In this document: positions 6,877 through 64,000 of the stretch, one piece after another
How the letters are laid out: each line of letters begins with the position of its first letter
How positions within the stretch are numbered: position 1 is the stretch's first letter
From: Arenicella sp.
GTDB lineage: Bacteria; Pseudomonadota; Gammaproteobacteria; Arenicellales; Arenicellaceae
DNA: 64,000 bases
Assembly: GCA_050633585.1 (NCBI GenBank)
Contig: JBOEGT010000036.1
Location: 13,951 to 77,950, forward strand
Direction: 5' to 3'
Made by a program: the position numbers and the translations under genes
Notes under the pieces: model-generated
What the model saw: the letters and a program-made list of their open reading frames with translations, nothing else
The model's database searches: none
What the model was told of the DNA's origin: nothing

Positions 6877-6891
6877 ATTGGTAATACCAAT
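6877..6891. promoter_or_regulatory. FadR/GntR-type operator-like palindrome ATTGGTAATACCAAT (copy 2)
   Basis: Same motif as copy 1 with a different centre base. It lies 40 bp downstream of copy 1 and upstream of dctP at 6969. Confidence 0.5.
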
Positions 6892-6968
6892 AAACCATTA
6901 TTCAGAAATTAGACGTTTGATGGCTAAATTAACAATAAATACATAGCCAAATATTCCGGAGGAAATTC

Positions 6969-8036: not shown

Positions 8037-8085
8037 AGCTTCGTCACTTTTACGTTCTACTTTTTAATAAGTAAATATTGCGTTT

Positions 8086-8118
8086 CAAGGATAGAAGGTT
8101 TTCCTTCTATCCTTGTTT
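8086..8118 (+). terminator. intra-operon hairpin or attenuator between dctP and dctQ
   Basis: A perfect 13-bp stem (CAAGGATAGAAGG / CCTTCTATCCTTG) with a TTTT loop is followed by TTTCAC. The T-tract is weak. Confidence 0.5.
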
Positions 8119-8153
8119 CACGCTTAATTTATTTGATTGAATAGGAAAAAACC

Positions 8154-10117: not shown

Positions 10118-10140
10118 GTTGGATGAAACGCTTTGGAACA

Positions 10141-10920
10141 TTATGAATCATCCAAGAGTTGGGCTCTGATTAAACGCTGTTCTTGTCGTTCAATCTCAAG
10201 AATACGATCGCGCTTGTCTCTGACATGGTCCATGGCGGCACGAGCAGCACTGTCAGGTTTTCGGTCAATAATGGCATTAAAGATCAGGCGATGATAAGCC
10301 TGAATCTGTTGTCTAGATCTTTCATGATGGTAAAGATTGCTAACGGTAACAACAACGCTGTTTTGAATGAGTTGCATGAGGTTTTGTAATGTATGAATCA
10401 AAACGGGGTTATGAGATGCGGCGTAAATTGAACGATGAAATTCATGGTCTAACTGTGCGGCATCCAGCATTTCAGCGTTGTTTGCATAGGCTTCATCCAT
10501 GGTATTGAATGCTTTGGTGATGCGATATAGGTCTTTTTCAGTTGCACGTTCAGCGGCGAGTTTGGCCGCTTGACCTTCTAAGAGTTCACGGACTTCGAGA
10601 AGATCAAAAAGCATTCGCGGGTGGTCATCATAGACTTTATTTAAGGTATTCGTTTCGGAGGAATTTTCTAAAAAGTTGCTAACAAAAGATCCTTTTCCAT
10701 GAACTGTATGAATGACACCGCGACCACGTAGTTCTTTGATGGCTTCTCTTACAACGGGTCTAGATGCATTTAAGCGTTCGCAGAGTTGTCTTTCAGAGGG
10801 TATTTTTTCACCGGGTTGTAAAAATCCATCGACAATTAAGCCTTCGATTTGTTGCATGATTTTTGAGCTGGATGACGCCGAAGTGTTTTTGTTTGACATT
10901 TTATTGAAAAAACTGGTCAT
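10141..10920 (-). CDS. glcC: GntR/FadR-family regulator, GlcC-like (glycolate operon regulator candidate)
   Basis: The GntR HTH (KIPSERQLCERLNASRPVVREAIKELRGRGVI) is followed by an FCD domain. The gene is divergent from glcB-glcG-glcDEF, the arrangement seen for E. coli glcC. Confidence 0.7.
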   Translation of the reverse strand: MTSFFNKMSNKNTSASSSSKIMQQIEGLIVDGFLQPGEKIPSERQLCERLNASRPVVREAIKELRGRGVIHTVHGKGSFVSNFLENSSETNTLNKVYDDHPRMLFDLLEVRELLEGQAAKLAAERATEKDLYRITKAFNTMDEAYANNAEMLDAAQLDHEFHRSIYAASHNPVLIHTLQNLMQLIQNSVVVTVSNLYHHERSRQQIQAYHRLIFNAIIDRKPDSAARAAMDHVRDKRDRILEIERQEQRLIRAQLLDDS

Positions 10921-10926
10921 ACCAGT
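10912..10926. promoter_or_regulatory. operator-like inverted repeat ACTGGTCATACCAGT (copy 1)
   Basis: ACTGGT-N3-ACCAGT matches the GntR/FadR consensus t.GT...AC.a. It overlaps the annotated start of the regulator gene. Confidence 0.5.
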
Positions 10927-10986
10927 AAGAGATTAAACATGAATAATAGCATTAAATGAGTTTTTAACTATGTTTCGTACGAATTC

Positions 10987-11001
10987 ACTGGTCATACCAG
11001 T
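10987..11001. promoter_or_regulatory. operator-like inverted repeat ACTGGTCATACCAGT (copy 2)
   Basis: An identical 15-mer lies 75 bp downstream of copy 1, in the glcC/glcB divergent promoter region. Confidence 0.5.
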
Positions 11002-11084
11002 ATTTTTGGCATGTAGACACTGGCCACTGTGCTCTCTATATTGGTGAATACATGAAACCCCTATGAAAATGAGGCACGACTCAA

Positions 11085-13250
11085 ATGACAAGCTATATCA
11101 AGAAAAATAACCTTTCAGTACATCCAGATTTAATTGAGCTGTTGGATAATCATATATTGCCAGGGTTGTCTGTATCGGCAGAGCAAGTGTGGACAGGTTT
11201 TTCGAAATTAGTTGAAGAATTAACGCCAGTGAACAAATCGTTACTGGCTAAACGCGAAGCCTTGCAAACTCAAATTGATGAATGGCACACAGCGAACCCA
11301 AATGCCTTGCCGAATAACTTTCAAGCCTATAAAGCCTTCTTACAAGAGATTGGCTATTTGGTTCCAGAAGGTGATGATTTTGCGGCGACCACAGAAAATG
11401 TTGATGCAGAAATTGCGAGTATTGCCGGGCCTCAATTAGTCGTTCCAGTGAATAACGCACGTTTTGCATTGAATGCCGCGAATGCGCGTTGGGGTAGTTT
11501 ATATGATGCTTACTATGGTACAGACGTCATTGATGAAAACGAAGGACGTGAAAAAACAGCGGCATATAACCCCATGCGTGGTAAAGCTGTGATTCAAAAA
11601 GCCGCTGAATTTCTGGACCACTCTATTCCGTTGGCTCTTGGAAAGCATGCCGAAGTTGCGGACTATCACATTGTTGAAAATCAAGTCATTGTGACATTAG
11701 AAAATGGCTCAACCTCAATGTTAAGCAATCCGGAACAATTTATCGCCAGTAACCAAAACGGGGATAAATTAGAGCTGCTATTCGAGAAAAACAATTTGCA
11801 TATTGAGGTCCAAATTGATCGAGATCATCCTATTGGTAAAGATTCGGCTGCGGGTGTTAAAGACATCGTGATTGAGTCAGCGATCAGTACCATTATGGAT
11901 TGTGAAGACTCTGTTGCTGCTGTTGACGGTGAGGATAAAGCCTTGGTGTACCGTAATTGGCTAGGCTTAATGAAAGGTGATTTACAAGAATCTTTTCAAA
12001 AAGGAGGTAAAACGATTACTCGTCAATTAAATCCAAATCGTACTTATACGGGTAAAGATGGAAATAAAGTGGAGTTACATGGCCGCAGTTTGTTATTGGT
12101 CAGGAACGTGGGTCATCTGATGACTAATCCTGCTATTTTGGACGGCCAAGGTAATCAAATTCCGGAAGGAATCATGGATGCGTTGTTCACGACGTTATGT
12201 GCGATGCATGACTTTAAAGATGATGCGCCTATTCACAATAGTCGTCAAAAAAGCATTTATATTGTTAAGCCAAAAATGCATGGACCGGATGAAGTGGCTT
12301 TTGCGAACACACTGTTTTCTCGAGTGGAAGATATGTTAGGTTTACCGCGCAATACAATGAAAATTGGTGTGATGGATGAAGAACGGCGCACGACAGTTAA
12401 TTTGAAGGAATGTATTCGTGCGGTGAAAGAGCGTATTGTGTTTATTAACACAGGGTTCTTGGATCGTACGGGTGATGAAATTCATACATCAATGCAAGCG
12501 GGCGCGTTCTTACCAAAAGAGCAAATCAAGCAAAAAACATGGATTCATGCCTATGAGGATTGGAATGTTGATACAGGCATTCAATGTGGTCTTCCTGGCG
12601 TCGCTCAAATCGGTAAAGGCATGTGGCCAAAGCCTGATGAAATGGCGCAAATGTTGGTCGCGAAAATTGATCATCCGAAGGCTGGAGCTAATTGTGCTTG
12701 GGTGCCCTCACCGACAGGTGCCACATTGCATGCTACTCACTACCACCAAGTCGATGTTTTTGCGGTTCAACAAGCATTAGCAAAACGACAAAAAGCAAAT
12801 GTAGATGATATTTTAACGGTACCATTGTTGGGTGATGTCAGTTTGACTCCCCAAGAAATACAAAATGAGTTAGATAACAACGCGCAAGGTATTTTAGGCT
12901 ATGTTGTGAGGTGGATTGATCAAGGTGTCGGTTGTTCAAAAGTGCCGGATATCAGCAACGTGGGCTTAATGGAAGACCGTGCGACACTGCGTATTTCAAG
13001 TCAATTGCTAGCGAATTGGCTTGAACACGGCATTTGTTCAGAACAAGAGGTGATGGAAGCCATGAAGCGAATGGCTCGCATTGTTGATCAACAAAATGAA
13101 AAAGATGCGAGTTACCAGAAAATGGCACCAAACTTCAATGGCGTTGCATTTAAATCAGCGTGTTCTCTTGTGTTTGAAGGGGTGAGTCAACCGAGTGGTT
13201 ATACTGAGCCATTGCTACATGCGTATCGCTTAGAGGCTAAAGCACAATAA
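11085..13250 (+). CDS. glcB: malate synthase G
   Basis: 721 aa. The length and sequence are typical of malate synthase G, and the gene heads a glc-type operon. Confidence 0.85.
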
Positions 13251-50591: not shown

Positions 50592-52664
50592 CTAAAAATC
50601 TTCTATAAATTCGCTACCAACAACATGCCTCAACCACCAATCATCATTTGAAATCGGTTCGCCGCACTTATCTAAAATAGACAGTGATGGGCAGCTTCCC
50701 GCTTGACCAGATATAGTGATGTAATCTCCATCAAATGATGTAAAGCTGACTTCCATTTGGTCGTCATAGGTAGGAGCCTGTTCGATCAATATACCCACAG
50801 CAATGCGTTCGCCCATGCGTAGGCTGTCATAGTAGTCAGAATAGTAATGCACGCCTGCCATGTTACGGCCAATCGAAATATTTGCGGCTAGCTTATCCAG
50901 TTCTCCCTGTATGGTAAGTTTGCCTTCAAATTGCTCATCTCTTGTTAAGGTTTCACCGGGTTCAACGCCTTTTTTAGTGGGTGCAATATCAGGTCGAAAA
51001 GCAAAATCTAGTGTCCGTTCGGTCTTACTATCACAGTCTTCATACATCTCAAAAAAAGCTTTAAGCATGGTGACGCATCCGCCAGCCACTGTTGCGTGAC
51101 CAGCACCATAGGCCGGATGCATTGGCGAACCTTCTGGGAAGGCCATAGGCAGTAAAAGGTTTGCTTTGTCAAAGCTGCTGTCGGTGATTTTTTTACCATG
51201 AAGAGAAGGCAAAATGTCATTTTTTACAGTGACTTTGCTATCTTTCGCTTTGGCCTTTTGTTGATTATTGTGCTCGATAACCGCTTTTAAGAGATGTTTG
51301 TCAATGCCATGTAACGAGTCTTTGAAGGCATCTCCAGCACAACCTAAGTCTTTGGTGCCACCTAATTGACTGACGGTGTATCTCGCGCCCATTACCTCTG
51401 GTCTTGCGCGACGATGGTAGTTAAACTTTTGTCGGCGTACCCCTTTTAAGCAACGCGTCGCCACTTCAGTGACTAAGGACAAAATATGTGGTCCCCCAAA
51501 GGTGGCAAACGAGTCTCTTTTCCCGGAAGGGCTGGGTTCTGGAAAGCCCTTTGAAAAAGGGACGCCATTGCCAAGAAGGATTAATCCAGCATTGAGATAG
51601 GCTTCATAGAGAGCATCAAAATGAACATATGTGGCGAGATCTCTTGGTGTGGTGATAAAGCGTTTTTTTGACTCATATTTATCCAAGCCTTTAAAGTTTG
51701 CTCCGTTTTGCACGTCCATCCATGATGACCAGTCTGTCATATAATCAAGCCCGTTTAAGTGGGTAATTGTGCGCTGATCAATCGTCAAAGAACCATAGCC
51801 AATGTAACCATTTTGGTTTGAAAATGCTGATGAATCACAGCTTTTGCTGATGGTATTACCGGCTATTGAGTTGTTTCCGACGAGTAAGAATTGCGAGATG
51901 TAATGCCCTTTTTTTGCACCTTCGGTTGATCCTCTAAATAGAGTTTCTAAGGATATTTTTCCTTCACAGTCGAGTCTAGCATCGCGTCGGTTGCGTTCGA
52001 ATCGGTCCAGTTTAACGTTGCCGCTGACATAATGCATGCCGTTTAATGCCGACACGACTTTTGTTGGAGTAATAGTGGCATGACCTCCATTAATGCAAGT
52101 GTTATCGCCTGCTTCAATGCGTTCAAACGGTACATCACGCAACAACGCTAAGCTATAGACTTCGGCCATTTCAAAACCGACTTCATTACTTTTTCCGGCT
52201 AATCTTGGCGCTGGAGCCATGCCAACCGCACCTGCATCTGGGCCTTGTAGCTCATAAGTATGCCCTGCCCGTGGGCTTTCCCAGCCGCGCCATTGGGTTT
52301 CTCCTTTTTCGGTTTTAGGGCAATTGAAGGATAAATTGCTTTCGGCCATACGGTCTTCAGCGGATAACACATGATTTTCGAATAATGAGCGATCTTCTGA
52401 GTTAATGGCTTCGACAAACTTTCTATAGTCAGTAGCGTCATCTACCAGTCCCGTGTGTGGGTTGTGGAACAAACCTTTGGTGAAGTTGGTTGGGTAACCC
52501 GATTCTTGAGGTGAGCTAGGACCAAAATCTTGCTCTTCAAGGTTTGATGATGTTTTCGCTTGAGGGCGAAGTCTGGCGACTTCGGTGGCGAGATCGCGAA
52601 ACTTTTTTGCGGCTTTTGCGCGGCTTGAGCCGTTCTGGCTGGGTTCTGAAAATGGTAATTTCAT
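50592..52664 (-). CDS. vanadium-dependent haloperoxidase family protein (PAP2/acid-phosphatase superfamily, large bacterial type)
   Basis: About 690 aa from the Met at 52664 (MKLPF), which has a GGAG Shine-Dalgarno sequence 7 nt upstream. The tripartite PAP2/V-HPO motifs are K-x6-RP (KFNYHRRARPE), PAYGAGHAT and R-x5-H-x3-D (GRNMAGVHYYSDYYD). The size fits a V-haloperoxidase rather than a small phosphatase of about 250 aa. Confidence 0.6.
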   Translation of the reverse strand: MKLPFSEPSQNGSSRAKAAKKFRDLATEVARLRPQAKTSSNLEEQDFGPSSPQESGYPTNFTKGLFHNPHTGLVDDATDYRKFVEAINSEDRSLFENHVLSAEDRMAESNLSFNCPKTEKGETQWRGWESPRAGHTYELQGPDAGAVGMAPAPRLAGKSNEVGFEMAEVYSLALLRDVPFERIEAGDNTCINGGHATITPTKVVSALNGMHYVSGNVKLDRFERNRRDARLDCEGKISLETLFRGSTEGAKKGHYISQFLLVGNNSIAGNTISKSCDSSAFSNQNGYIGYGSLTIDQRTITHLNGLDYMTDWSSWMDVQNGANFKGLDKYESKKRFITTPRDLATYVHFDALYEAYLNAGLILLGNGVPFSKGFPEPSPSGKRDSFATFGGPHILSLVTEVATRCLKGVRRQKFNYHRRARPEVMGARYTVSQLGGTKDLGCAGDAFKDSLHGIDKHLLKAVIEHNNQQKAKAKDSKVTVKNDILPSLHGKKITDSSFDKANLLLPMAFPEGSPMHPAYGAGHATVAGGCVTMLKAFFEMYEDCDSKTERTLDFAFRPDIAPTKKGVEPGETLTRDEQFEGKLTIQGELDKLAANISIGRNMAGVHYYSDYYDSLRMGERIAVGILIEQAPTYDDQMEVSFTSFDGDYITISGQAGSCPSLSILDKCGEPISNDDWWLRHVVGSEFIEDF

Positions 52665-53063
52665 CTTATGTCTCCGTACTGTCATGATTAACAAAAGTGT
52701 TGTTTTAAAACGCCTGAGTATGTATCTAACATCATGGATGTTGATTTGATTCATGCGTGCCGATAAGCGAATCTCCTTCTTTGGTTTTTATCCTTTTGCT
52801 ATGAGTCCTATGCAGTTCCTGAGTCGCTAGCCTTGATTCCTATCGCGAAGTCAGTATCTTCCTTAGTCCATTTGCATCATTAAAAAATCAATATTTCTTT
52901 TGTAGCGGCTGACTAATCATCTAATCACTTGCTGCCACTCAGAAATACGGAGCCCAGAGACAACCTGTCTCAAATATCGGCTGCAAAACGATAACAACTC
53001 ATACTCTGTTGGACGGCTTGTCTAACAAAATTTTTAATTACTTATCCTTCATTTAAGGTTTCC

Positions 53064-53513
53064 TTAAGTCATGCGACGAGATAAAAATAAGCCAATTAAC
53101 ATAAATGCGACGCCGAAAAACCGTGTGCTATTTAAAGGCGTGGCTTGCGTACTGAATAAGCCGAAATGGTCGATAATGGAGGCAGATATCACTTGCCCCA
53201 ATAGGACAAAAAAGATTGAATTACCCACGCCGTAACGAGGCACTAACCAGGTAATTGATAGTACGTAAAATGCAACAAACATGCCGCCAATGTAAAGGTA
53301 AATAGGCACCATTTTAAATGTTTTCATGGCTGGGAAACCTTGTATAAATGTGGCTGATAAGCAAATTAAAAAAGCCCCCAAAAACAGAATAGTCGCAGCA
53401 GTGGTTGTTGAATCTAAGCGTAAACCAAGTCTGCTACTAATGCTGGCCATGACAGGAATTCCAATGCCTGCCACCAATGCTAATGTCGAATAATATAGAG
53501 TTGATGACATCAT
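53064..53513 (-). CDS. YdcZ/DUF606-type small DMT-family transporter
   Basis: 149 aa with four to five TM segments. Confidence 0.5.
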   Translation of the reverse strand: MMSSTLYYSTLALVAGIGIPVMASISSRLGLRLDSTTTAATILFLGAFLICLSATFIQGFPAMKTFKMVPIYLYIGGMFVAFYVLSITWLVPRYGVGNSIFFVLLGQVISASIIDHFGLFSTQATPLNSTRFFGVAFMLIGLFLSRRMT

Positions 53514-53716
53514 TAACGACTCATTTTACGACGTTGAGTTACTGTGTCACCACCAATTCCCCAATTATCGGTTTGCACGACATCAATGGTCACAATAGTT
53601 GTTTCTGGGTTTTTATTTAGCTCTCGTTGTAATAGTTCAGTGACAGATTTGATAAGTGTGGCTTTTTTTTCGGTGGTTAAGTTTTCTGGTGTGAGTTTGA
53701 AATTGACGTATGGCAT
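53513..53716 (-). CDS. tautomerase (4-oxalocrotonate tautomerase-like) family protein
   Basis: 67 aa starting with the Met-Pro catalytic N-terminus (MPYVNFKL...). A GIGG motif is present, and the start has an AGGA Shine-Dalgarno sequence. The track ORF extends 14 codons further upstream. Confidence 0.6.
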   Translation of the reverse strand: MPYVNFKLTPENLTTEKKATLIKSVTELLQRELNKNPETTIVTIDVVQTDNWGIGGDTVTQRRKMSR

Positions 53717-53816
53717 GGTTTTGTTCCTATTCTCTTGCTTGAGAGTTGACGATAACAACTTCCTTTATTCATTTAAAATGATTGTTTTTGCATTTTAATA
53801 TCAATATTATTGATGA

Positions 53817-54674
53817 ATGGATTATCTTTTATTAAATACTTTTCTACAGGTTGCTCGGTGTGGCAGTTTTTCTAAAGCCGCTGATGCAATGAATTGCGTT
53901 CAATCGAATGTCACCGCTCGTATCAAGCGTCTAGAGTTATATTTTGATCAAGTGTTGTTTGAACGTGGGCGAGGAGGTGCTCGTTTAACGGAGTTTGGGC
54001 GCCAGCTAGAATCTCAAGCCACAGAGTTAATGCGAGCGCATGAAAAAGCTGAGCAAGAGCTCTTAGATGCAGCAGGTAAATCGGCCAAACTGAAGCTGGG
54101 TTCCATGGAAACCACTGCCGGTGCTCGTCTACCAAAAGTTCTGAAATGGCTTTCATCACAGGCACCTGAAGCCGAGTTATCTTTGCAAACAGGGACAACT
54201 GGAGAATTAACATTAAAGGTCTGGGAACGTGAAATTGATGCGGCTTTTGTTGCAGGTCCTGTTGATGAAAAAAGATTTCACTGTATTCCTGTGTTTGCAG
54301 AAAAACTCGTGTTGGCAAGGCCTACCAAAGGTCAAGAGGCATTAGTATTTATGGCGTTTCGTAATTCATGCAGTTATCGCAATATTTCAAACCAATGGCT
54401 GAGGATGTCTGGAAAAAGTGATACAAAAACCATCGAGATGGGAACGCTTGACGGCATTCTTGGTTGTGTTGAAGCCGGAATGGGTTTTGCTATTTTTGCA
54501 GAAAGTGCCATTAATACTTATCGTGAATTTGACAATATCACGGTGGAACAACTGCCCGCAGAGATTGCTAACACGACAACATATTTAATATGGCGTTATG
54601 ACCATAAACCCAGCCAAACGCACCAAAAATTGATGAATTATTTTTCGGAATTAAGCTGCGAAAAAGAAAAATAA
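53817..54674 (+). CDS. LysR-family transcriptional regulator
   Basis: 285 aa with a LysR HTH (LLNTFLQVARCGSFSKAADAMNCVQSNVTARIKRLE). It is divergent from the tautomerase-ydcZ pair. Confidence 0.8.
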   Translation: MDYLLLNTFLQVARCGSFSKAADAMNCVQSNVTARIKRLELYFDQVLFERGRGGARLTEFGRQLESQATELMRAHEKAEQELLDAAGKSAKLKLGSMETTAGARLPKVLKWLSSQAPEAELSLQTGTTGELTLKVWEREIDAAFVAGPVDEKRFHCIPVFAEKLVLARPTKGQEALVFMAFRNSCSYRNISNQWLRMSGKSDTKTIEMGTLDGILGCVEAGMGFAIFAESAINTYREFDNITVEQLPAEIANTTTYLIWRYDHKPSQTHQKLMNYFSELSCEKEK

Positions 54675-54683
54675 GAGACTCCG

Positions 54684-55031
54684 TTATTTCACGTCAGGTT
54701 TTTCGTAGAAAATATAGGATGTTGAATAATCACTGAACTCGAAGTAGACCTTTTTACCCTCATTCGCGTCTTTCACGCCATTCAAGTTAGCATCTAGAAT
54801 TCCGTAACCAAAACGATAAGGTCTTGGCACGCTACCTTGTGTGGCGACCGCCGTGCTGAGCTTGTCAATTTGAATGAAACGTTTTGCAAGTTTATCGCCA
54901 GCGTACACTTCTAAGACGCCATTAGTACCCGTCCAGTTTTGTACCGCACGACCAAATTTGTTTTGTGTTTCTTGTGTGCAAGCAGCCGTTAATAGAGAGA
55001 GCGTTAGAATGCTAAATAGAGACTTTTTCAT
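54684..55031 (-). CDS. lipoprotein (hypothetical)
   Basis: 115 aa with a lipobox (LLTAAC). Confidence 0.45.
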   Translation of the reverse strand: MKKSLFSILTLSLLTAACTQETQNKFGRAVQNWTGTNGVLEVYAGDKLAKRFIQIDKLSTAVATQGSVPRPYRFGYGILDANLNGVKDANEGKKVYFEFSDYSTSYIFYEKPDVK

Positions 55032-55046
55032 AAGAATGCGTTGAGG

Positions 55047-55256
55047 CTATGCCGGTTGGTCAGGTATTAATGAGCTTTTAATCTTCTTCACTTGTTCTTC
55101 TAGGGTCAAGAGTTGTTTTTTCAAGCGACTAAGTTCGACTTGGTTACAATTTTTCGCTTTTTTGCACGTCTCAATTGCTTGTGTGAGGTCGCGATGCTGG
55201 CTTTTAATTTCAGCGAGTTTGGCGTGCAGTTGTTCTTGGTCAGGCAGATTATGCAT
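55047..55256 (-). CDS. DUF465/YdcH-like coiled-coil protein
   Basis: 69 aa. The helical HNLP...QLLTLEEQ pattern is typical of YdcH-type proteins. Confidence 0.45.
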   Translation of the reverse strand: MHNLPDQEQLHAKLAEIKSQHRDLTQAIETCKKAKNCNQVELSRLKKQLLTLEEQVKKIKSSLIPDQPA

Positions 55257-55474
55257 AGATTAAATTTTCATTTGTTTGCTTAAGAGCTGTTGACGTTGCT
55301 TTTGCGGTTTTGTCATTATAATAGGCTAGAATGGTAGCACGGGATATGCAAACAACATATCTTGTCGTGGGTAAAGATTGATGAGTGTTTGTTAAAAGAT
55401 TTCTGAAAACGATGTTTGTATCACAAAAATCGTTTTATACTAAAACTACAATACGCAACGTTCAGGAGTAAATT

Positions 55475-56089
55475 ATGTCGAATAATAATATACGCACTTT
55501 TGTTGGCTTACCGATCCCTGAACCACTATTGAACCACCTGAGTATCATGGCATCCAGCTTGGCTGCATTGGATGCGAATCGTATGTCGTGGGTGATTGAG
55601 AAAAACTATCATTTGACGCTTTTATTTTTAGGCGAACAATCACCACAGTGGTTGGATGATTTTGCACAAGCCTTAGATGAGGAGCTCTATTTTGAACCCC
55701 AAGAACTGTCCGTTTCACGTATTTTGCCCTTTCCCGAGAGTTCACCCAGGCTTTTAGCGGCGATTGTAGACGACACAGATAGCCTAGTGGCATTGCATCA
55801 TGATATTAAACGTATTGCAGCAAGTTTGGGCCACCAAGCCGAAAAGCATCGCTTTATGCCTCACATTACCTTAGCCAGAAAGTTTCCTCGTCATGGCCAT
55901 CAAAGTATTCCACCTGCGGTCGATAAAATTTCTGGCGAGGCCAGAGAACTCGTTGTTTATGAGAGTCAGCTTCATCAAGACGGCGCCCGCTATTTTCCAT
56001 TATATGGCTATGAAGCGGTCACCTACGATGGATATGATGACAACGGTTACGATGTTGAAAGTTATGATATTGAGGCTAAAGCCGTTTAA
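55475..56089 (+). CDS. thpR: RNA 2',3'-cyclic phosphodiesterase ThpR (2H / LigT family)
   Basis: 204 aa with two H-x-T-x motifs (HLTLLFLG and HITLAR). Confidence 0.7.
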   Translation: MSNNNIRTFVGLPIPEPLLNHLSIMASSLAALDANRMSWVIEKNYHLTLLFLGEQSPQWLDDFAQALDEELYFEPQELSVSRILPFPESSPRLLAAIVDDTDSLVALHHDIKRIAASLGHQAEKHRFMPHITLARKFPRHGHQSIPPAVDKISGEARELVVYESQLHQDGARYFPLYGYEAVTYDGYDDNGYDVESYDIEAKAV

Positions 56090-56919
56090 TGAAAGTAGAC
56101 TTACATTGTCATAGCCATTTTTCAGATGGCACATTGACTCCTACAGAAGTTGTCGATTTAGCGGTCAAAAACGATGTTGAATTATTGGCTTTGACGGACC
56201 ATGATTCAGTTCAAGGTTTAGAAGAAGCACGTCAACGCTGTCAATTTCACGGTATTAAAATGATTGATGGTGTTGAAATTTCAGTCAGTTGGAATGGATA
56301 TAGTATCCATGTTGTTGGCTTAAATATTGATGATCAACATCCAAATATGATCGCACTATTGGAAAAAAACGCCATTCTTCGCCATGACCGTGTTGTCAAA
56401 ATGATAGAAAAGCTTCAGGCAATCGACTTAGATGTAATGCCTTATTTAAACACTGTTATCCCAGACAATGGCTTGATTACCCGCACTCATCTTGGGCGAG
56501 CATTGGTTGAAATTGGTGCTGTCAATAAAATGGATAAAGCGTTTAAGAAGTACCTTGGCAAAGGCAAATGCGCGTATGTTGAGGGCAATTGGGTGAGCCT
56601 AAGTGATGCGGTTCAAGCCATTATAGATTCTGGTGGAGATGCTGTGATTGCACACCCCATGCGTTATCGCATTGGTGCGACACGTTTAGACGCATTGGTG
56701 AGTGATTTTGCTAAAGCGGGTGGCAAAGGCTTGGAAGTCGTGACGGCAACACAAGATGTGAATCAACAGCGCCGGTGTTTGCAACTCGCTGAGCAATATC
56801 AATTGCAGGCTTCAATCGGTTCAGACTTTCATAGCTTGGACCAACCATGGGCAATGCTGGGTCGATGCCCTTCTCTGCCAGCAAAAGCCATCCCAATTTG
56901 GCAAAACTGGTCGGACTAA
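56089..56919 (+). CDS. PHP-domain 5'-3' exoribonuclease / nucleotidase (TrpH/YciV, RNase AM-like)
   Basis: 276 aa with the PHP N-terminal motif VDLHCHSHFSDG. The start overlaps the thpR stop. Confidence 0.7.
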   Translation: MKVDLHCHSHFSDGTLTPTEVVDLAVKNDVELLALTDHDSVQGLEEARQRCQFHGIKMIDGVEISVSWNGYSIHVVGLNIDDQHPNMIALLEKNAILRHDRVVKMIEKLQAIDLDVMPYLNTVIPDNGLITRTHLGRALVEIGAVNKMDKAFKKYLGKGKCAYVEGNWVSLSDAVQAIIDSGGDAVIAHPMRYRIGATRLDALVSDFAKAGGKGLEVVTATQDVNQQRRCLQLAEQYQLQASIGSDFHSLDQPWAMLGRCPSLPAKAIPIWQNWSD

Positions 56920-56961
56920 TTCATAGCGCGTTCCACAAGGTGACGCATCAGCAGAGGTGAA

Positions 56962-57927
56962 ATGAAAGCGGTAGTTCGTTCAGAATATGGTTCTCCAAAT
57001 GTGCTGAGTATTCAAGATATTACCGCACCTCGACCCAATGACAATGAAGTGTTAGTGCGTATTTATGCCACAACAGTCAACCGGACAGATTGTGGTATTT
57101 TGAGCGGAAAACCGTTTTTAATTCGATTTTTTACTGGACTGTTGAAGCCAAAGCATCACACGCCAGGAACAGACTTTGCTGGAAGGATTGAAGCAGTTGG
57201 TAAGCATGTCGACCAATTTAAGGTCGGTGATGATGTGTGGGGTTTGGATGATGAGGGCTTGTCATCTCATGCGGAATATATGGTCATTGAACACCATAAA
57301 GGGATAACACATATGCCAACAGGTTTTAGTTATCAGCAAGCGGTGGCTTGTGCGGAAGGAGCACATTATGCGTTTAACTTTATCAATAAAGTCACAGTAA
57401 ACAGAGGAGATAAAGTGTTAGTGAATGGCGCCACAGGGGCCATTGGCTCCGCGGCTTTGCAACTGCTCAAGTCTAAGGGAGCGATTGTGACAGCTGTTGG
57501 CAACACACCCAATCTTGCGTTGTTGGAATCACTTGGGGCGGATAAAGTCGTTGATTATTTACAGGAGGATTTTCTGAATGATGCTGATAAATATCACTTT
57601 GTCTTTGATGCCGTTGGCAAAAGTTCATTTTCGGCATGCAAAAAAATCATGGAGCAGAAAGCCGTTTATATTTCATCTGAATTGGGACCTCATCATCAGA
57701 ACTTATATTTACCGCTAGTCACTAAGTTTTTGGGTAAACAAAAAGTGATATTCCCCATCCCTTTTAATTGCCGCCGAAGTATTGAATTCATGACGGCATT
57801 GGCTGAAAAAGGACAGTTTAAGGCGGTCATTGATCGTGAATATCCCATGGATGATATTAAAGCTGCCTATGATTATGTGGCGAGTGGGCAAAAGACAGGC
57901 AATGTGGTCATCAATTGTTCTACTTAA
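56962..57927 (+). CDS. NADPH:quinone oxidoreductase / zinc-type alcohol dehydrogenase-like (MDR) protein
   Basis: 321 aa with a GroES-like N-terminus and a Rossmann motif GATGAIGSAA. Confidence 0.65.
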   Translation: MKAVVRSEYGSPNVLSIQDITAPRPNDNEVLVRIYATTVNRTDCGILSGKPFLIRFFTGLLKPKHHTPGTDFAGRIEAVGKHVDQFKVGDDVWGLDDEGLSSHAEYMVIEHHKGITHMPTGFSYQQAVACAEGAHYAFNFINKVTVNRGDKVLVNGATGAIGSAALQLLKSKGAIVTAVGNTPNLALLESLGADKVVDYLQEDFLNDADKYHFVFDAVGKSSFSACKKIMEQKAVYISSELGPHHQNLYLPLVTKFLGKQKVIFPIPFNCRRSIEFMTALAEKGQFKAVIDREYPMDDIKAAYDYVASGQKTGNVVINCST

Positions 57928-58121
57928 TCGCTAACAACTCGAAAATTAATCTTATTCTATAATTCAGAACTTTTTTAAGTGCATGAAAATAAAAGGGATT
58001 TTATTTTTTTATTCTTTTTCTATACACAAGGAAGTTTGCGGTACGCTGTTTTCTTACGATAGTCATATATTCAGGAATCAACCTGATTATAAAAGCTAAC
58101 TAAACTCGTAAGAGGTGCCAT

Positions 58122-58505
58122 ATGTATACAACACTGACCTATTTAATTTATATCATCGCCACAATTTTTATCACGGTATTTGTCGCTCGCACATTGAGTA
58201 AAAACGGTGAAATTTACCTGGTTGATGGTTTTGATGGAAATGAGTTATTAGCGTCTTCAGTGAACCATATGCTGGTGGTTGGTTTTTATCTATTGAATCT
58301 AGGGTTTGCCTTGCTAAGAATGAGAACAAACACTGCCATTGAAAGTGTTGAAGGGATGGTTGTCTACTTAAGTTCTGGTTTAGGCTTTGTTTTATTTGCG
58401 CTAGGAATCGCACACTTTTTCAACATGTATGTCATTTCTCAATTTCGTAAAAATAAAACCAAAACAGCAAATATTCAGAAAAACGAAACAGAAAGCTGGT
58501 CTTAA
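58122..58505 (+). CDS. small membrane protein (hypothetical)
   Basis: 127 aa with three to four TM segments. Confidence 0.35.
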   Translation: MYTTLTYLIYIIATIFITVFVARTLSKNGEIYLVDGFDGNELLASSVNHMLVVGFYLLNLGFALLRMRTNTAIESVEGMVVYLSSGLGFVLFALGIAHFFNMYVISQFRKNKTKTANIQKNETESWS

Positions 58506-58572
58506 TTAACCCAAACATGGTGCCGAGATCCTCGGCACCTTTACTGAATTTAAATGATAAGTAGGAGGAAAA

Positions 58573-58950
58573 ATGTTTAAGCAAGGGTTTTATTATGGGG
58601 CTTGGGGGCCATTGTTTGGCGCTGTTTTATATTATGTCGGGGCAATACTCTGGTTATTAATGAATGCAAAAGGTGATTACTCTTCAGTAAAAATAATGTC
58701 AGAGTTTTTCCCCTTGTTGATATTTGCTTACTTATTCGCAGGCATACCCGCGTTTTTGACAGGTATAGCCGCACATTTTCTAGGGAAACAGAATATAGCC
58801 ATTATCGGGTTAATAGGAGGTTTTTTATCTTTTTGGATTTTTCCAATCATTTTCGGGGAAATTGATATGAAGCTTGCATTATTATTCGGTGCGATAGGTG
58901 CCATTTCAGCCTGTGTTTTAGCGAAAATTAATGTCAAAAGAGATTCATAA
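58573..58950 (+). CDS. small membrane protein (hypothetical)
   Basis: 125 aa with four TM segments. Confidence 0.35.
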   Translation: MFKQGFYYGAWGPLFGAVLYYVGAILWLLMNAKGDYSSVKIMSEFFPLLIFAYLFAGIPAFLTGIAAHFLGKQNIAIIGLIGGFLSFWIFPIIFGEIDMKLALLFGAIGAISACVLAKINVKRDS

Positions 58951-58995
58951 ACGCTATGATTTAAGCCTGTAAAACACGCTACTCACTGATTAATT

Positions 58996-61632
58996 ATGAT
59001 TGACGCTTCTTCAGCTTCACAGGCTCCTCAACAAAATAACGCAATTTACCTCAAAGATTACCAAGCGCCCTTGTTTGATATTGAATCGGTTGATTTGCAA
59101 TTTGACTTAGTTGCTGGTCGGACATTGGTCACATCAGTGTTGAAAATAAAGGCGTTGTCTGAAAGTCGGCAACTTGTTTTAGATGGAGAACAGCTTGAAA
59201 TAGTCTCGATTCAATTGGATGGTAAGGACTTGTCGAGCGATCAATACCAGTATGAGGATAACCAGCTAAGGCTTCAGAATGTGCCAGAGTCGTTTGAGTT
59301 GCGAACTGTTGTGGCGATTGAGCCTGAGCAAAACACACAGTTGTCGGGTTTGTATCAATCGAGTGGAAATTATTGCACGCAGTGTGAGGCGGAAGGCTTT
59401 CGTCGTATCACCTTCTTTTTAGATAGGCCGGATGCATTAAGTGTCTTTACGGTAAAAATCATTGCTGATAAGGCTGATTTTCCGGTGTTGTTGGCCAATG
59501 GTAATCCGCAGGATAGTGGCGATTTAGAGAATGGTAAGCATTTTGCCGTATGGGATGATCCACACCCAAAACCTTCTTATCTATTTGCTTTAGTCGCAGG
59601 AAAATTAGAAAAAGTCAGTGGTGAATTTACCACTCAGTCTGGTGAGACAGTGGAATTGAATATTTTTGCTGAATCGCACAATGTTGATAAATGTGATTAC
59701 GCCTTAGGTGCCCTGGTGCGTTCTATGGAGTGGGATGAAAAAGTCTATGGCAGAGAATATGATTTAACGGTGTATAACGTCGTTGCTGTTGATGATTTCA
59801 ATATGGGGGCGATGGAAAACAAAGGCTTGAATGTCTTCAATTCTAAATACGTTCTCGCATTACCAGACACGGCCACAGACGGTGACTTTGAAGGTATTGA
59901 AAGCGTCATTGGTCATGAATATTTTCATAATTGGTCGGGTAATCGAGTGACTTGCCGTGATTGGTTCCAGCTGAGTTTAAAAGAAGGTTTCACCGTCTTT
60001 CGTGATCAAGAGTTTAGCGGCGATATGGGGTCACGTGGTGTGAAGCGTATTAATGATGTGAATATTTTACGCACACACCAATTCAAAGAAGATGCAGGAC
60101 CGATGGCGCACCCTGTCCGGCCGGCTTCCTATGAGGAAATTAATAACTTCTACACTGTCACGGTCTACAACAAAGGGGCTGAAGTGGTACGCATGTTGCA
60201 CAGCCTTTTAGGTGTGGAACTCTTTCGAAAAGGCACCGACCTATATTTTGATCGCCATGATGGGCAGGCTGTGACAACTGACGATTTTGTACAAGCGTTG
60301 GCAGATGCCAGTGGTCGAGACTTTACGCAGTTCAAGCGTTGGTACTTTCAGGCTGGCACACCGACATTGACGCTTTCAGAAACGTATGCGGGTGGTGTGT
60401 ATCGATTAACGATTGAACAATCTTGCCCACAAACGTCTGATATGCTCAATGAAGATGGCAGCGAAAAGTTCACAAAGCAACCGTTTCATATGCCACTAAG
60501 CATTCGATTGTTGTCAGAAAATGGCGTTGAACTGTTAGCTGAACAAGTCTTAGAGTTGACCGAGGAAAAGCAGACGTTCGAGTTCACAGATATTGTTTCT
60601 CGCCCCGTGCTTTCATTTTTACGCGGCTATAGTGCGCCAGTAAAAATTCAACGTGAACAAAGCAGTGAAGACTTAGATTGCTTGATTCGTTACGACAACG
60701 ACCCCTTTGTGCGCTGGGAAGCCATGCAACAACGTATGTTAAATGCCCTATTAGCGCAATACAAGAAAGGTAAAATTGCGACGCGTTTGCCAGAATCAAT
60801 GGGGATTTTGTTTCAGCAAATGTTAGCCGCCGCGGATGAAGAAGATCCCGCCATGTTAGCGGCTTTGATGATATTGCCTAACGAAAGCTATTTGTCGGGT
60901 TTTTGTGAACCTGTCGAACCACAGTTATTACGTGCTATCCGAGAATCATTTGCGGATTTGATTGCGATGGAATGTGAACAGTTACTCTTAGCAACGTATA
61001 TGAATCATCATAATCCTGATTATGAGCTGAATGGCTTAGAAGCCGGAAAGCGTGATTTAAAAAATGTCTGCCTGAGTTACTTAATGCGCCTTGATCAAGA
61101 GGCTTATTTTGACATTGCACAAGCTCAGTTTGATGCGGCCAATAATATGACGGACTCTTATGCGGCCATGAACGCATTGGTTAACTCCAGTTATGCTGAG
61201 AAACAAACAGTGTTAAGCGCGTTTTATGATCAGTGGCAAGACAATGCTTTGGTACTTGATAAATGGTTTACGGTCCAAGCCAGTGCGAGAAATACTGACA
61301 CCTTTGAGCAAGTCCAGCGTTTGTTTTCACATGCAGCGTTTAGCATGAAAAATCCGAATAAAGTGCGCTCCTTGCTGGGTGCTTTTGCGCAAAATATGGG
61401 TGGTTTTCATCGCAAAGACGGTGCCCCATATCAGTTTTATGCCGATCGAGTGTTAGAGCTCGATGCGATCAACCCGCAAGTGGCCGCTCGCATGGTAGGC
61501 GCGTTTAATTCATGGAAAGCATTTGATAAAGTGTTTGCCGATTTAATGGTCACCGAACTTCAGCGAATAGAAGCACACCCTGGACTTTCTAAAGACGTGA
61601 CAGAAATTGTTTCTAAAGCCTTAAAGCACTAG
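58996..61632 (+). CDS. pepN: aminopeptidase N
   Basis: 878 aa. M1 zinc-peptidase motifs GAMEN and HEYFHNWSGNRVT...E are present. Confidence 0.85.
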   Translation: MIDASSASQAPQQNNAIYLKDYQAPLFDIESVDLQFDLVAGRTLVTSVLKIKALSESRQLVLDGEQLEIVSIQLDGKDLSSDQYQYEDNQLRLQNVPESFELRTVVAIEPEQNTQLSGLYQSSGNYCTQCEAEGFRRITFFLDRPDALSVFTVKIIADKADFPVLLANGNPQDSGDLENGKHFAVWDDPHPKPSYLFALVAGKLEKVSGEFTTQSGETVELNIFAESHNVDKCDYALGALVRSMEWDEKVYGREYDLTVYNVVAVDDFNMGAMENKGLNVFNSKYVLALPDTATDGDFEGIESVIGHEYFHNWSGNRVTCRDWFQLSLKEGFTVFRDQEFSGDMGSRGVKRINDVNILRTHQFKEDAGPMAHPVRPASYEEINNFYTVTVYNKGAEVVRMLHSLLGVELFRKGTDLYFDRHDGQAVTTDDFVQALADASGRDFTQFKRWYFQAGTPTLTLSETYAGGVYRLTIEQSCPQTSDMLNEDGSEKFTKQPFHMPLSIRLLSENGVELLAEQVLELTEEKQTFEFTDIVSRPVLSFLRGYSAPVKIQREQSSEDLDCLIRYDNDPFVRWEAMQQRMLNALLAQYKKGKIATRLPESMGILFQQMLAAADEEDPAMLAALMILPNESYLSGFCEPVEPQLLRAIRESFADLIAMECEQLLLATYMNHHNPDYELNGLEAGKRDLKNVCLSYLMRLDQEAYFDIAQAQFDAANNMTDSYAAMNALVNSSYAEKQTVLSAFYDQWQDNALVLDKWFTVQASARNTDTFEQVQRLFSHAAFSMKNPNKVRSLLGAFAQNMGGFHRKDGAPYQFYADRVLELDAINPQVAARMVGAFNSWKAFDKVFADLMVTELQRIEAHPGLSKDVTEIVSKALKH

Positions 61633-61831
61633 TTTTTTGGGCTTTAGTTTGATTAATCAATCCGTGCGCATTTCTATTAGTGGAAATGCGTATATTTAAC
61701 TTGATTCAACTAAAGTGCTTTGTAAAGTTATTTAATGATTTCAAAAGGGTGCTGAGATAAAGTGAACGTATCAGAAAAACAAATCGAGCATGCCTTATAT
61801 GCAAATGTTATGCATCAATAAGAGAAGAAGT

Positions 61832-62170
61832 ATGAATACTATAGAAACTCCTGAAAGCTGGAATGAGCATGCTCCTTTAGTGATGGTCACAAATTTATGT
61901 ATTGGGCCAAACCGGGAGAGAATACGTTTCATTTTTCGGGAGGAGCCAAACAATGATGCGGACTCGGGCTGGGTATTTTTTTGTGGTTATGAGCCGCCCG
62001 GTTACGCTGATGATTCAAGTAATTTCTCAATATGTCCACTAAAAAGTATTCTGGAAATAGAGCCGGAATTAGCAGCATTAGTAAATTCGCCAATTGGCAG
62101 TGCATGGGAAAAAACTCCCGAAAGCACTGAATGGATTCAAGTAGATAACTTCCAGTACGAAGATGCATAA
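61832..62170 (+). CDS. hypothetical protein (cassette ORF 1)
   Basis: 112 aa from the internal ATG (MNTIETPESW). No family was recognised. Confidence 0.4.
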   Translation: MNTIETPESWNEHAPLVMVTNLCIGPNRERIRFIFREEPNNDADSGWVFFCGYEPPGYADDSSNFSICPLKSILEIEPELAALVNSPIGSAWEKTPESTEWIQVDNFQYEDA

Positions 62171-62271
62171 CAAGCGGCACCACGCAGACACCCAAACCTC
62201 CGCGGCTTTTGTGGTTTCGCGGCGCTCAACTTTAACACAAAAGCCACTCTGGTTTGGCCGCTGGTGTACCG
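62164..62271 (+). repeat. attC-like imperfect palindrome 1
   Basis: The left end GCATAAC overlaps the ORF stop. The inner arms are GGCTTTTGTG...CACAAAAGCC, and the outer arms (CGGCACCACGCAG...CCAAACC versus GGTTTGGCCGCTGGTGTACCG) are partly complementary. The right end is GTTAACT. Confidence 0.45.
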
Positions 62272-62289
62272 GGCGTTAACTGTACGAGT

Positions 62290-62568
62290 ATGAAAAATTT
62301 AGAAACTATAGCGAACGCGGGAAACACGGAAGTTCCATGTTACTTGGCAACTCAGTCATTGGGTTTTGATTTTTCGCGGATCAACGAAGGTGAAGACAAC
62401 GAAATGTGGATTGCGGAAAGTTCTGAATGTAGGTTTGTTGCTTCTAATCAATTAGAGTTGTTAGGTCTAATATACATGCGTAATCTGAGGGGGGCAGAGT
62501 GGAAGGCATCGGATGCCGAAATAGATGTCTATCTTAAACAATATTACCCCAAAGCACTGGAGAGTTAG
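62290..62568 (+). CDS. hypothetical protein (cassette ORF 2)
   Basis: 92 aa from the ATG at 62290 (MKNLETIANAG). Confidence 0.4.
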   Translation: MKNLETIANAGNTEVPCYLATQSLGFDFSRINEGEDNEMWIAESSECRFVASNQLELLGLIYMRNLRGAEWKASDAEIDVYLKQYYPKALES

Positions 62569-62579
62569 TCATGTGCCAG

Positions 62580-62673
62580 ATCACAGTTAACAAGCACATC
62601 AAGTTTGCCAGCAAAATCCGCTGGCCGGATTTCCCGCTGTGCTCCACTCCAGCCGCTTATGTGGGTGTTAGAC
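62580..62673 (+). repeat. attC-like imperfect palindrome 2
   Basis: The left arm GTTAACAAGCACATCAAG is the imperfect reverse complement of CTTATGTGGGTGTTAGAC. The inner repeat is GCCAGC...GCTGGC. It ends in the GTTAGAC core. Confidence 0.45.
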
Positions 62674-62688
62674 CTAGTGGAAAAAAAT

Positions 62689-63216
62689 ATGAATTTATCT
62701 AAAAGTCGCAAAGAAACAATCAGTACATATATCAAAGCAAAGGATGATAATAAACCACACTTAATGAAAGATGTTTTTGAAAATTCTGCAAGCTTAAGCA
62801 TGAAAGTGAAATCAGATGCAATTTCATTTCCCTCTGAATCACAAGGGTTAGATTCTATCACCAATATTTTGGTTAGTGATTTTAGTCAAAAATATGAAAA
62901 TGTGTATACATTTTGCATGAGTGATTCAATAATGTTTGATGAAGAAAACACGCTGTGCAAATGGGTTGTGGTGATGACAGACAGGAAAGAAGGTAATATA
63001 CGAGTTGGATTTGGTGGTTATAAATGGGTTTTTAATAACGATCTAGTAAAGCAATTAACGATATCAATTGAATATATGATCGCATTGGAAAAGATGCAAA
63101 GTGAAGAGATATTTCTATGGACAAATAAGAAGAATTACCCATGGTGTGATTCTGGTGAGTTTCTTAAAGGGGTACCTGAATCTATTTCTTTTTTGGCGAA
63201 TGGTCTAACAAGCTAG
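62689..63216 (+). CDS. hypothetical protein (cassette ORF 3)
   Basis: 175 aa from the ATG at 62689 (MNLSKSRKETI). The upstream part of the track ORF lies within the palindrome. Confidence 0.4.
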   Translation: MNLSKSRKETISTYIKAKDDNKPHLMKDVFENSASLSMKVKSDAISFPSESQGLDSITNILVSDFSQKYENVYTFCMSDSIMFDEENTLCKWVVVMTDRKEGNIRVGFGGYKWVFNNDLVKQLTISIEYMIALEKMQSEEIFLWTNKKNYPWCDSGEFLKGVPESISFLANGLTS

Positions 63217-63272
63217 TTGTATGAGACGCATTAAACGTGCGCTCCACAATAGAGTGTTAAGTGTAAAAAATT

Positions 63273-63866
63273 ATGAAAATTATTATAAGTTTAGTTTTAT
63301 TTTTCTATCCTTTAGTTTCTTTAGCTAATCCAGTATTAGATGTAATTGCTGAGTTAGACATACCTGAAGAAGATTTTGAATATTATTGGGGCAGCTCCTG
63401 TAATCCTAATTGGCAACGAAAAATCCCTGTTACCCTATTAAAAGATGAATCTTTGCTTTATTTTAGAGGAATACAAACTGGAATGATGGCTGTAGAAAAA
63501 TATGATTCAGAGTTTGCTTGGCTAACGCTAGGTGAAAAATGCGAAGCACTAAATAATTATTATTTTCATGGTAATACTAATATTGGTCTAATTTCTAGTT
63601 TTATTGAACAAGATAAATTATTTAAAACTCAATATAGTCATAGTGCATTAGATGCATGGTCAATTGAAAAATATGGAGCTATGTCAATGAATGGGAAACT
63701 AAACGAAAGAATATTTAAACTTTGTCAAATACTAGAAAAGAAGGGTTTGCTGAGAATTATTGTAAGAAATAGTACTTTCAACGGAAAGCCTTCTAAATCG
63801 TATAAAAATAAATTGACGGCAGATGGACTGGTGCTTGACAAGGCATTGCAGCGGACAAGCCGCTGA
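63273..63866 (+). CDS. secreted hypothetical protein (cassette ORF 4)
   Basis: 197 aa with a signal peptide (LVSLA-NP). Coding is AT-rich. Confidence 0.4.
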   Translation: MKIIISLVLFFYPLVSLANPVLDVIAELDIPEEDFEYYWGSSCNPNWQRKIPVTLLKDESLLYFRGIQTGMMAVEKYDSEFAWLTLGEKCEALNNYYFHGNTNIGLISSFIEQDKLFKTQYSHSALDAWSIEKYGAMSMNGKLNERIFKLCQILEKKGLLRIIVRNSTFNGKPSKSYKNKLTADGLVLDKALQRTSR

Positions 63867-63888
63867 ATCCGGCGCTAGGAGCATCAAT

Positions 63889-64000
63889 ATGTACAAGATA
63901 GTAATAATTGCCACTCTTCTATTTTCATCAAATGCTTTTGCAGAGAATTATTATGGCTGGGCAGGAAGTTGTGAGGAGATAATTTACAATTTTGATTTTC
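63889..64000 (+). CDS. secreted hypothetical protein, N-terminal fragment (continues beyond the window)
   Basis: The ATG at 63889 is followed by a signal-peptide-like MYKIVIIATLLFSSNAFA. Confidence 0.3.
   Translation, partial: MYKIVIIATLLFSSNAFAENYYGWAGSCEEIIYNFDF

Follow-up and report, generated by a model that had tools for sequence, protein, structure and literature searches.

A small gene cassette array, probably a cluster of attC sites lacking integrase, downstream of pepN in Arenicella

The pepN locus and the layout of the array

The window analyzed here is a 64,000-nucleotide (64 kb) stretch of contig JBOEGT010000036.1 from Arenicella sp. (GCA_050633585.1, forward-strand positions 13,951 to 77,950); Arenicella belongs to the Arenicellales of the Gammaproteobacteria. 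Near its right end lies pepN (58996-61632), directly followed by an array of small open reading frames (ORFs) and attC-type recombination sites; positions are those of the window, and features are on the plus strand unless stated otherwise. The region very likely represents the attI-proximal part of a small CALIN (cluster of attC sites lacking integrase) in the Arenicella chromosome, situated between pepN and a conserved core gene.

The spacer between pepN and the array (61633-61806, 174 bp, GC content 0.316) contains a terminator-like hairpin at 61664-61693, and shows no attC-like fold, recognizable attI or integrase coding capacity; the bottom-strand fold of 61690-61815 is unstructured (z = +0.54). 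The left junction, J0, is the heptamer GTTATGC at 61807-61813, with an inferred crossover between G61807 and T61808, such that a genomic G is followed by the TTATGC of cassette 1. Cassette 1 (61808-62275, 468 bp, GC 0.416) carries ORF1 (61832-62170, 112 aa), the TAA stop codon of which falls inside the R'' box of attC1 (62165-62281, 117 bp, GC 0.56; R'' GCATAAC, R' GTTAACT). Cassette 2 (62276-62667, 392 bp) carries ORF2 (62290-62568, 92 aa) and attC2 (62585-62673, 89 bp, GC 0.53; R'' AGTTAAC, R' GTTAGAC). Cassette 3 (62668-63256, 589 bp) carries ORF3 (62689-63216, 175 aa), with R'' within its last codons, and attC3 (63203-63262, 60 bp, GC 0.42; R'' GTCTAAC, R' GTTAAGT). From 63257 to the window end at 64000, cassette 4 and what follows hold ORF4 (63273-63866, 197 aa), a candidate decayed attC (63833-63880) and the partial ORF5, which begins at 63889 and is cut by the window end. 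The window therefore presents three intact promoterless cassettes with one ORF and one attC each, and then a run of ORFs with an apparently decayed site; no consensus promoter occurs on the plus strand before 62905, hence none ahead of cassettes 1-3.

An initial annotation made from the sequence alone had described four same-strand ORFs of 112, 92, 175 and 197 aa, all of which are present, each preceded by a GTTRRRY-like heptamer. All four heptamers exist, although two had been misplaced: GTTAACT lies at 62275 instead of 62265, and GTTAAGT at 63256 instead of 63246. The first two spacers are palindromic and GC-rich (0.56 and 0.53) as had been proposed, with corrected lengths of 117 and 89 bp; beyond the two attC-like sites noted there is a third, the 60-bp, less GC-rich site at 63203-63262, which had not been recognized as such. 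Markedly lower GC than in the core genes had also been claimed for the array. This holds for ORF3-5 (0.31-0.33), whereas ORF1 and ORF2 (0.41-0.42), together with ORF6 from the sister contig described below, are at about 0.41 and match the core genes (0.425 ± 0.021); the GC content suggests mixed origins for the array ORFs.

Extent of the array in sister contigs

The window ends within ORF5, and the remainder of the array was read from the sister contig L099 (GCA_041156565.1), which is 99.27% identical across window positions 52290-64000 (11.7 kb) and extends 2,038 bp further. Beyond the window end L099 contains the full-length ORF5 (127 aa, signal-peptide-like), followed by a 178-aa membrane ORF (ORF6) with no recognizable attC before it. 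ORF6 is followed by a 119-bp attC (attC6, GTCTAAC...GTTAGAA), and then by ORF7, a DUF6194 protein (E = 1e-46), and a terminal R''-like half-site, TTCCAAC-AAG, which agrees with the expected TTCTAAC at six of seven positions and has no partner. The right flank is a minus-strand gene with 68% identity (E = 2.6e-39) to a gene located 1.5 kb from pepN in L001, the closest other relative. The array thus ends in L099 at a conserved core gene approximately 1.5 kb beyond the window, and it contains four intact attC sites (three in the window and one in L099), all on the plus strand and within 2.8 kb. On this sequence comparison the element is taken to be a bounded array of approximately 3.5 kb with seven ORFs between pepN and the conserved core gene. 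The pepN of L001 itself shows 78% identity, with no cassettes downstream; L001 was considered as an empty-site comparison and rejected, as its two genes between pepN and the conserved gene are absent from the window.

A further sister contig, L100 (GCA_041156785.1, 9,154 bp), ends at the last base of the window (64000 corresponds to L100 9154 and L099 11711), inside ORF5; the coincident breaks suggest strain-level heterogeneity of sequence or cassettes from that point onward. ORF2 and ORF3 have 100% identical counterparts, ACRBEE_09200 and ACRBEE_09205, in an Arenicella sp. metagenome-assembled genome.

No integrase was detected. A tblastn search of the window, which covers 62 kb upstream of the array, with an IntI1 query verified as 100% identical to annotated intI1 gave a best E-value of 1.8, and L099 holds no integrase up to its contig end 2 kb beyond the window; neither the 64 kb nor the L099 extension showed an insertion sequence (IS) element. 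The earlier statement that pepN lies upstream, that the window lacks intI and that the array runs off the window end is therefore borne out.

Cassette boundaries

The signature that most directly identifies these units as cassettes is the relation between their two ends. The heptamer opening each of cassettes 1-3 is the exact reverse complement of that cassette's own downstream R'' (seven of seven positions), and the complementarity between R' and own R'' extends beyond the heptamer to 9-11 nt; at J0, TGTTATGCATC and the sequence around the R'' of attC1 are exact reverse complements across 11 nt. The initial annotation had already remarked that the left end of a spacer is complementary to the core opening its own unit. 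The two ends of any single palindrome match only at TAAC/GTTA (four of seven positions). Pairing between the start of a unit and its own R'' is expected since crossovers at G|TT take place between different circular cassettes; self-contained palindromes would lack it. AAC/GTT is invariant at the ends of attC1-3, the strict RYYYAAC consensus fits attC3 only, and R' matches GTTRRRY at two of the three sites, the exception being the GTTAACT of attC1.

All three sites start with TAACAAGC. This motif has four copies in the window on both strands compared to 2.7 expected from shuffles, and is therefore not enriched; three of the four copies are on one strand inside 1,046 bp. Loose matches of the boundary type are common: an exact 7-mer complement lies anywhere within 500 nt of 3.9% of GTT sites, and a chain detector (R', complementary R'', next R') was discarded as not discriminating after shuffled sequences gave chains of four to eight. 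Because such matches and chains arise readily by chance, weight is placed on matches at positions fixed by the hairpins. There the chance estimate is approximately 4^-9, from three non-invariant heptamer bases in each of three cassettes, with positions set independently by the hairpin ends and TAACAAGC.

The same cassettes in other genomes

Homologs of two of the ORFs occur in other genomes with DNA homology that begins at the R' core. An ORF3 homolog with 75% amino acid identity is present on the chromosome of Marinomonas sp. THO17 (L081, AP031575.1), in a long run of small same-strand ORFs that includes ParE/ParD, YoeB/Phd and GNAT genes; DNA homology between the window and THO17 begins exactly at GTTAGAC, spans the ORF to TCTAACAAGCTA, and then decays. 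The attC after this homolog, at 10515-10570 of L081, is cut to approximately 55 bp, and the next start codon, that of a RibD_C-domain gene, lies inside the remnant; two THO17 cassettes appear to be fused there, in parallel to the decay at 63833-63880 of the window.

Contig L101 (GCA_947487765.1, CANKXO010000004.1) contains an ORF2 homolog with an identical GTTAACT start and AGTTAAC R''; the cassette has its own 82-bp attC and is followed, within 8001-9078, by a gene for a Tse2-type ADP-ribosyltransferase toxin (PF18648) and then a 70-aa ORF. No integrase occurs within the 8 kb examined on either side, core genes adjoin, and the segment may be another mini-CALIN with a toxin/immunity pair. A further ORF2 homolog lies in contig L102 (GCA_041156805.1, JBFPDY010001147.1, positions 1-12521), which belongs to the same assembly series as the Arenicella contigs, in a run of at least 24 small ORFs on one strand, some of which encode beta-lactamase-family, GFA, flavodoxin-like and Macro-domain proteins; L102 looks like a large cassette array, and no IntI was found in the part examined (1-12521). 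The three-way homology of the ORF2 cassettes from the window, L101 and L102 starts at the R' core, and the sequences upstream of it are unrelated. Copies of the ORF3 family in Enterovibrio, Marinomonas 5E14-1 and one further genome each stand alone among housekeeping genes and lack a clear attC, so that membership of the family is not confined to cassettes.

Anatomy of the attC sites

An attC is taken as an imperfect palindrome of approximately 57-141 bp in which an unpaired central spacer separates the R box from the L box and the terminal structure varies. The sites were folded as single-stranded DNA using the bottom strand, and all folds are predictions. As controls, 14 bona fide attC sites were harvested from class 1 integrons on sequenced plasmids: those of dfrA14, aac(6')-IIc, aadA1, aadA2, lnu(F), arr-3, aac(6')-Ib, dfrB1, blaOXA-2, dfrA27, estX, cmlA1, qacL and a HAD-family cassette.

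attC1 folds at -26.9 kcal/mol (z = -2.9; 0 of 200 shuffles equal or better) and attC3 at -8.8 kcal/mol (z = -2.15); both are predicted to contain a 5-bp R helix, a 2+2 internal loop, an imperfect L stem and a variable cap loop. The class 1 controls fold in the same manner, and have common end motifs YAAC-AAR... and ...GGC-GTTRRRY. Structurally weakest is attC2, with an R-box pair probability of approximately 0.8.

The one-sided extrahelical bases on the R''/L'' arm determine which strand of an attC is chosen for recombination. In the predicted folds the counts of pure bulges on the 5' versus the 3' arm are 0/3 for attC1, 0/2 for attC3, 0/1 for attC6 of L099 and 0/3 for the attC of L101; in the class 1 controls, 12 of 14 have no pure bulge on the R'/L' arm, and 13 of 14 have one to three on the L''/R'' arm. 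A blastn-short search of each palindrome against the 64 kb returned only the palindrome itself and chance 9-12-mers, such that attC1-3 share core motifs only; no plus-strand terminator T-runs follow the attC stems in this region.

Detection of attC sites

Several detectors were applied to the region. An Rfam scan of 55-64 kb gave no match; Rfam contains no attC family. A palindrome scorer based on arm complementarity was abandoned as it did not separate the sites from background hairpins, with attC1 scoring low because of its bulges. A substitute covariance model was built from 14 trimmed class 1 attC cores; it recovers only 60-bp sites of the aadA type, and fails to find the arr-3, dfrA27 and estX sites on which it was itself trained.

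A second detector combined position weight matrices (PWMs) for the end motifs, learned from class 1 sites only, with a constrained bottom-strand folding energy. The end-motif PWM scores of attC1, attC2 and attC3 are 16.3, 17.5 and 15.2 bits, and their folding energies per nucleotide (dG/nt) are -0.23, -0.18 and -0.147 kcal/mol; class 1 sites scored by leave-one-out span 9.5 to 25 bits and -0.18 to -0.37. Outside the window, attC6 of L099 scores 26.1 PWM bits and the L101 site 18.2 bits with a dG/nt of -0.167. At a strict cut that all three window sites pass (PWM at least 15 bits, dG/nt at most -0.14), a search of both strands of the 64 kb gives four matches, three of which are attC1-3. The fourth, at 46771-46824 on the minus strand, is a perfect 10-bp hairpin between two minus-strand genes with ends that remain unpaired when it folds freely; this is probably a terminator, and thus a false positive of the detector.

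Probable decay of sites within the array

The R'' expected for cassette 4, ACTTAAC, is absent, though the cassette opens with TTAAGT. The 48-bp hairpin at 63833-63880 (GCTTGAC...GCTAGGA, GC 0.60) falls exactly between the ORF4 stop and the ORF5 start, and its R'' matches ACTTAAC at five of seven positions; it is the best match in the window to the class 1 attC covariance model, although its score (15.2 bits, E = 0.38) is not significant alone. The hairpin is likely an attC in which the cores have mutated from AAC/GTT to GAC/GCT, fusing cassettes 4 and 5. Decayed sites would freeze ORF4-ORF6 as one fused block.

Cargo proteins

ORF1 is a member of the Imm33/DUF2185 family (Pfam PF09951, E = 5.6e-22, 77.8 bits against a cutoff of 25.4), which is a predicted immunity partner of HNH-fold nuclease toxins (PMC3482391); by this family assignment it is an orphan predicted immunity protein in this array. 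In-frame ATG codons occur upstream of ORF1 at 61790 and 61799, the latter being the start of the public gene call (123 aa). The start at 61832, after GAGAAGAAG, is more consistent with the cassette structure, as 61799 would fall outside the cassette.

ORF2 is a conserved small alpha/beta protein with a confident structure model (predicted local distance difference test score, pLDDT, 93.6); the model has no significant structural match and displays only a weak dsRBD-like topology. The model of ORF3 (pLDDT 94.4) shows an NTF2/SnoaL-like cone fold, and a structure search with it gave 415 matches in the PDB at E <= 0.001, the top ones being limonene epoxide hydrolase and ketosteroid isomerase. The initial view that the ORFs belong to no recognizable families is thus overturned by the Imm33/DUF2185 assignment of ORF1 and the NTF2-like fold of ORF3. 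A cassette annotated as a 'nuclear transport factor 2 family protein' is found in class 1 integrons on IncHI2 plasmids (L088 and L091 1028-1435), next to aac(6')-IIc, ereA2, aac(3)-IIg and arr; it shares the fold class of ORF3.

ORF4 begins with a signal-peptide-like N-terminus, matches nothing in Pfam or the PDB, and has only 19 distant relatives among 1.84 billion representatives. The arrangement from cassette 4 onward recurs, at 99.3% identity, in an independent Logan contig. Two signal peptides had been claimed among the four ORFs; one is that of ORF4, and the second belongs to the partial ORF5, outside the four listed. When ORF2, ORF3 and ORF4 were compared with PDB sequences by profile search, nothing meaningful was returned, and PADLOC detected no defense-system families in ORF1-4. 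With L099 included, the predicted cargo of the whole array consists of an Imm33 protein, a small alpha/beta protein, an NTF2-like protein, two secreted proteins, one membrane protein and a DUF6194 protein.

Interpretation and origin of the array

The definition of CALIN and their proposed origins have been given by Cury et al. 2016 (PMC4889954). An array was counted as a CALIN here if it has at least two attC clustered on one strand and no intI or recognizable pseudogene within 4-10 kb. This is the arrangement found within the sequence covered (62 kb upstream, and 2 kb downstream via L099). A complete integron would have intI, attI and Pc before its first cassette; here the pepN stop codon lies 174 bp from cassette 1. 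Of the two possibilities put forward initially, the CALIN is therefore favored, on site anatomy, the boundary signature, the shared cassettes and the absent intI in the sequence covered.

Several observations weigh against this assignment. The R'' boxes of attC1 and attC2 depart from the strict RYYYAAC consensus; attC3 and attC6 of L099 fold weakly in terms of energy; and the minimum free energy structure of attC2 is branched, the canonical R+L hairpin with one 3'-arm bulge being 2.1 kcal/mol higher. A branched minimum is also seen in the class 1 control blaOXA-2 attC. The substitute covariance model misses attC1-3; it is insensitive even to its own long training members, and because these are missed its silence is uninformative rather than negative. 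Lenient cut-offs of the PWM and folding detector give approximately 114 matches per Mb in 1.39 Mb of unrelated loci, and due to this high false-positive rate the scores of single sites are supportive, not decisive. Finally, the right boundary is read from the sister population L099 and not from the contig of the window itself, and two assemblies break exactly at the window end while L099 reads through.

In the proposed mechanism each cassette would once have been circular, and would have been inserted by an integron integrase that cuts between G and TT of the core site; since a circular cassette is cut at G|TT, each inserted cassette starts with TTRRRY complementary to its own R''. For the first cassette, the most likely point of entry is a genomic G|WT site of the attG type or else an attI that subsequently lost its integrase; later cassettes would have been added or carried along. 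Integrase-mediated insertion of cassettes at genomic 5'-G|WT-3' (attG) sites has been described by Loot et al. (bioRxiv 10.1101/2022.09.11.507474). At J0 a genomic G directly precedes TTATGC with no att-like structure upstream, which would fit attG insertion and is equally compatible with the loss of intI and attI; the right junction is decayed. Mobility of the intact cassettes (1-3 plus the units of ORF6 and ORF7) would require IntI to be supplied in trans. Expression is probably weak and would rely on read-through from pepN, as a terminator-like hairpin follows pepN and cassettes 1-3 have no consensus promoter ahead of them.

Among the alternatives, the one that survives best, although it is on balance unlikely, is that the array is a fragment split by rearrangement from an integron elsewhere in the genome, or a satellite array serviced in trans. 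For approximately half of CALIN, IntI is encoded on the same replicon, and rearrangement is among their proposed origins (PMC4889954); three or four of the sites look intact, and L102, which is linked by assembly series, carries what looks like a large array including an ORF2 homolog. Against it, neither an intI nor an IS element is found in the 64 kb or the L099 extension.

A more specific scenario, to be regarded as speculative, is that a trans-acting integrase dropped the first cassette at G|WT after pepN in a lineage without its own integrase, and that the array then grew by attC x attC recombination into a store of conflict genes with strain-variable content, in line with the shared break point of two assemblies. 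The candidate contents of such a store are the orphan Imm33 protein, the ORF2 family (beside a Tse2-type toxin elsewhere) and the secreted proteins.

That a large, Vibrio-type sedentary chromosomal integron has its distal part here and its integrase beyond the window, the other possibility offered initially, is very improbable. The array does run off the window end, homologous cassettes are present in the large arrays of Marinomonas and L102, and the host is a marine gammaproteobacterium. However, given the polarity of the cassettes, the attI/intI end falls at pepN, and the mere 174 bp available there hold no integrase; the array stops in L099 at the conserved core gene with no intI; and the attC lengths differ (117, 89, 60 and 119 bp), with only core motifs in common. 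A sedentary integron was taken to have more than 19 homogeneous attC and a resident intI, as compared to approximately seven ORFs and four intact sites here.

The weakest alternative, that these are ordinary small genes with generic intergenic palindromes, either terminators or repeats of the REP (repetitive extragenic palindromic) or BIME (bacterial interspersed mosaic element) kind, draws on the commonness of intergenic hairpins, on a simple palindrome scorer and a core-chain search that separate the region from neither background nor shuffles, and on the lack of window-wide over-representation of TAACAAGC, and is scarcely credible given that the complementarity links the start of a unit to its own R'' and not the ends of one palindrome, that the bulges are one-sided as in real attC with no T-runs after the stems, that unrelated genomes carry the same ORFs, the homology setting in precisely at the core site, and that no palindrome has another copy in the 64 kb, where the dispersal typical of REP/BIME, which the initial annotation had named among the observations that would refute its reading, is not seen.

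Comparison with known systems

In a CALIN survey, 83% of these clusters comprised fewer than six attC, and 95% had no nearby intI pseudogene (PMC4889954). The Arenicella array resembles them in being small, in having cassettes unrelated to resistance genes and in having no intI pseudogene nearby; it differs in nothing essential, although several internal attC are decayed here and ORF4-ORF6 form one fused block. With class 1 cassettes the array shares the site architecture, the end motifs and the one-sided bulges, and its 5' untranslated regions are short (11-24 nt) and promoterless; attC3 and the aadA1 attC have the same 60-bp length and the same R'' GTCTAAC. Unlike class 1 integrons, the array lacks intI1, attI1, Pc, the 3'-conserved segment and resistance genes, and its PWM and energy scores are in the lower portion of the range spanned by class 1 sites.

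In sedentary integrons the attC sites are typically homogeneous (PMC4889954). Sedentary integrons of Vibrio and Marinomonas type resemble the array in their small orphan ORFs, toxin/immunity-related genes and NTF2-like proteins, whereas the array has no integrase, only approximately seven ORFs, heterogeneous attC and core genes as its bounds. The likeness to attG-inserted cassettes lies in the genomic G directly before TTATGC at J0 and in the lack of an upstream att-like structure; the cassettes of Loot et al. were, however, single, experimental and in E. coli, as opposed to several cassettes and a decayed right junction here.

No report on integrons in Arenicella or the Arenicellales was found in the literature searched. 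The array represents a well-described kind of element in a little-studied lineage and leaves current understanding unchanged; it is, however, a cleanly delimited Arenicellales CALIN, with both chromosomal flanks identified and cassettes that can be traced to arrays in other genera. It would therefore offer a natural example with which to study whether integrase-less arrays arise by secondary-site insertion or by integrase loss, how attC decay and how cassettes fuse. Its cargo of small conserved proteins agrees with the idea that cassettes serve as a reservoir of conflict and niche genes.

Elsewhere in the window, a variable segment at 55050-55177 sits among short minus-strand ORFs; it measures 128 nt in the window compared to approximately 76 nt in L100, and the alignment resumes on both sides.

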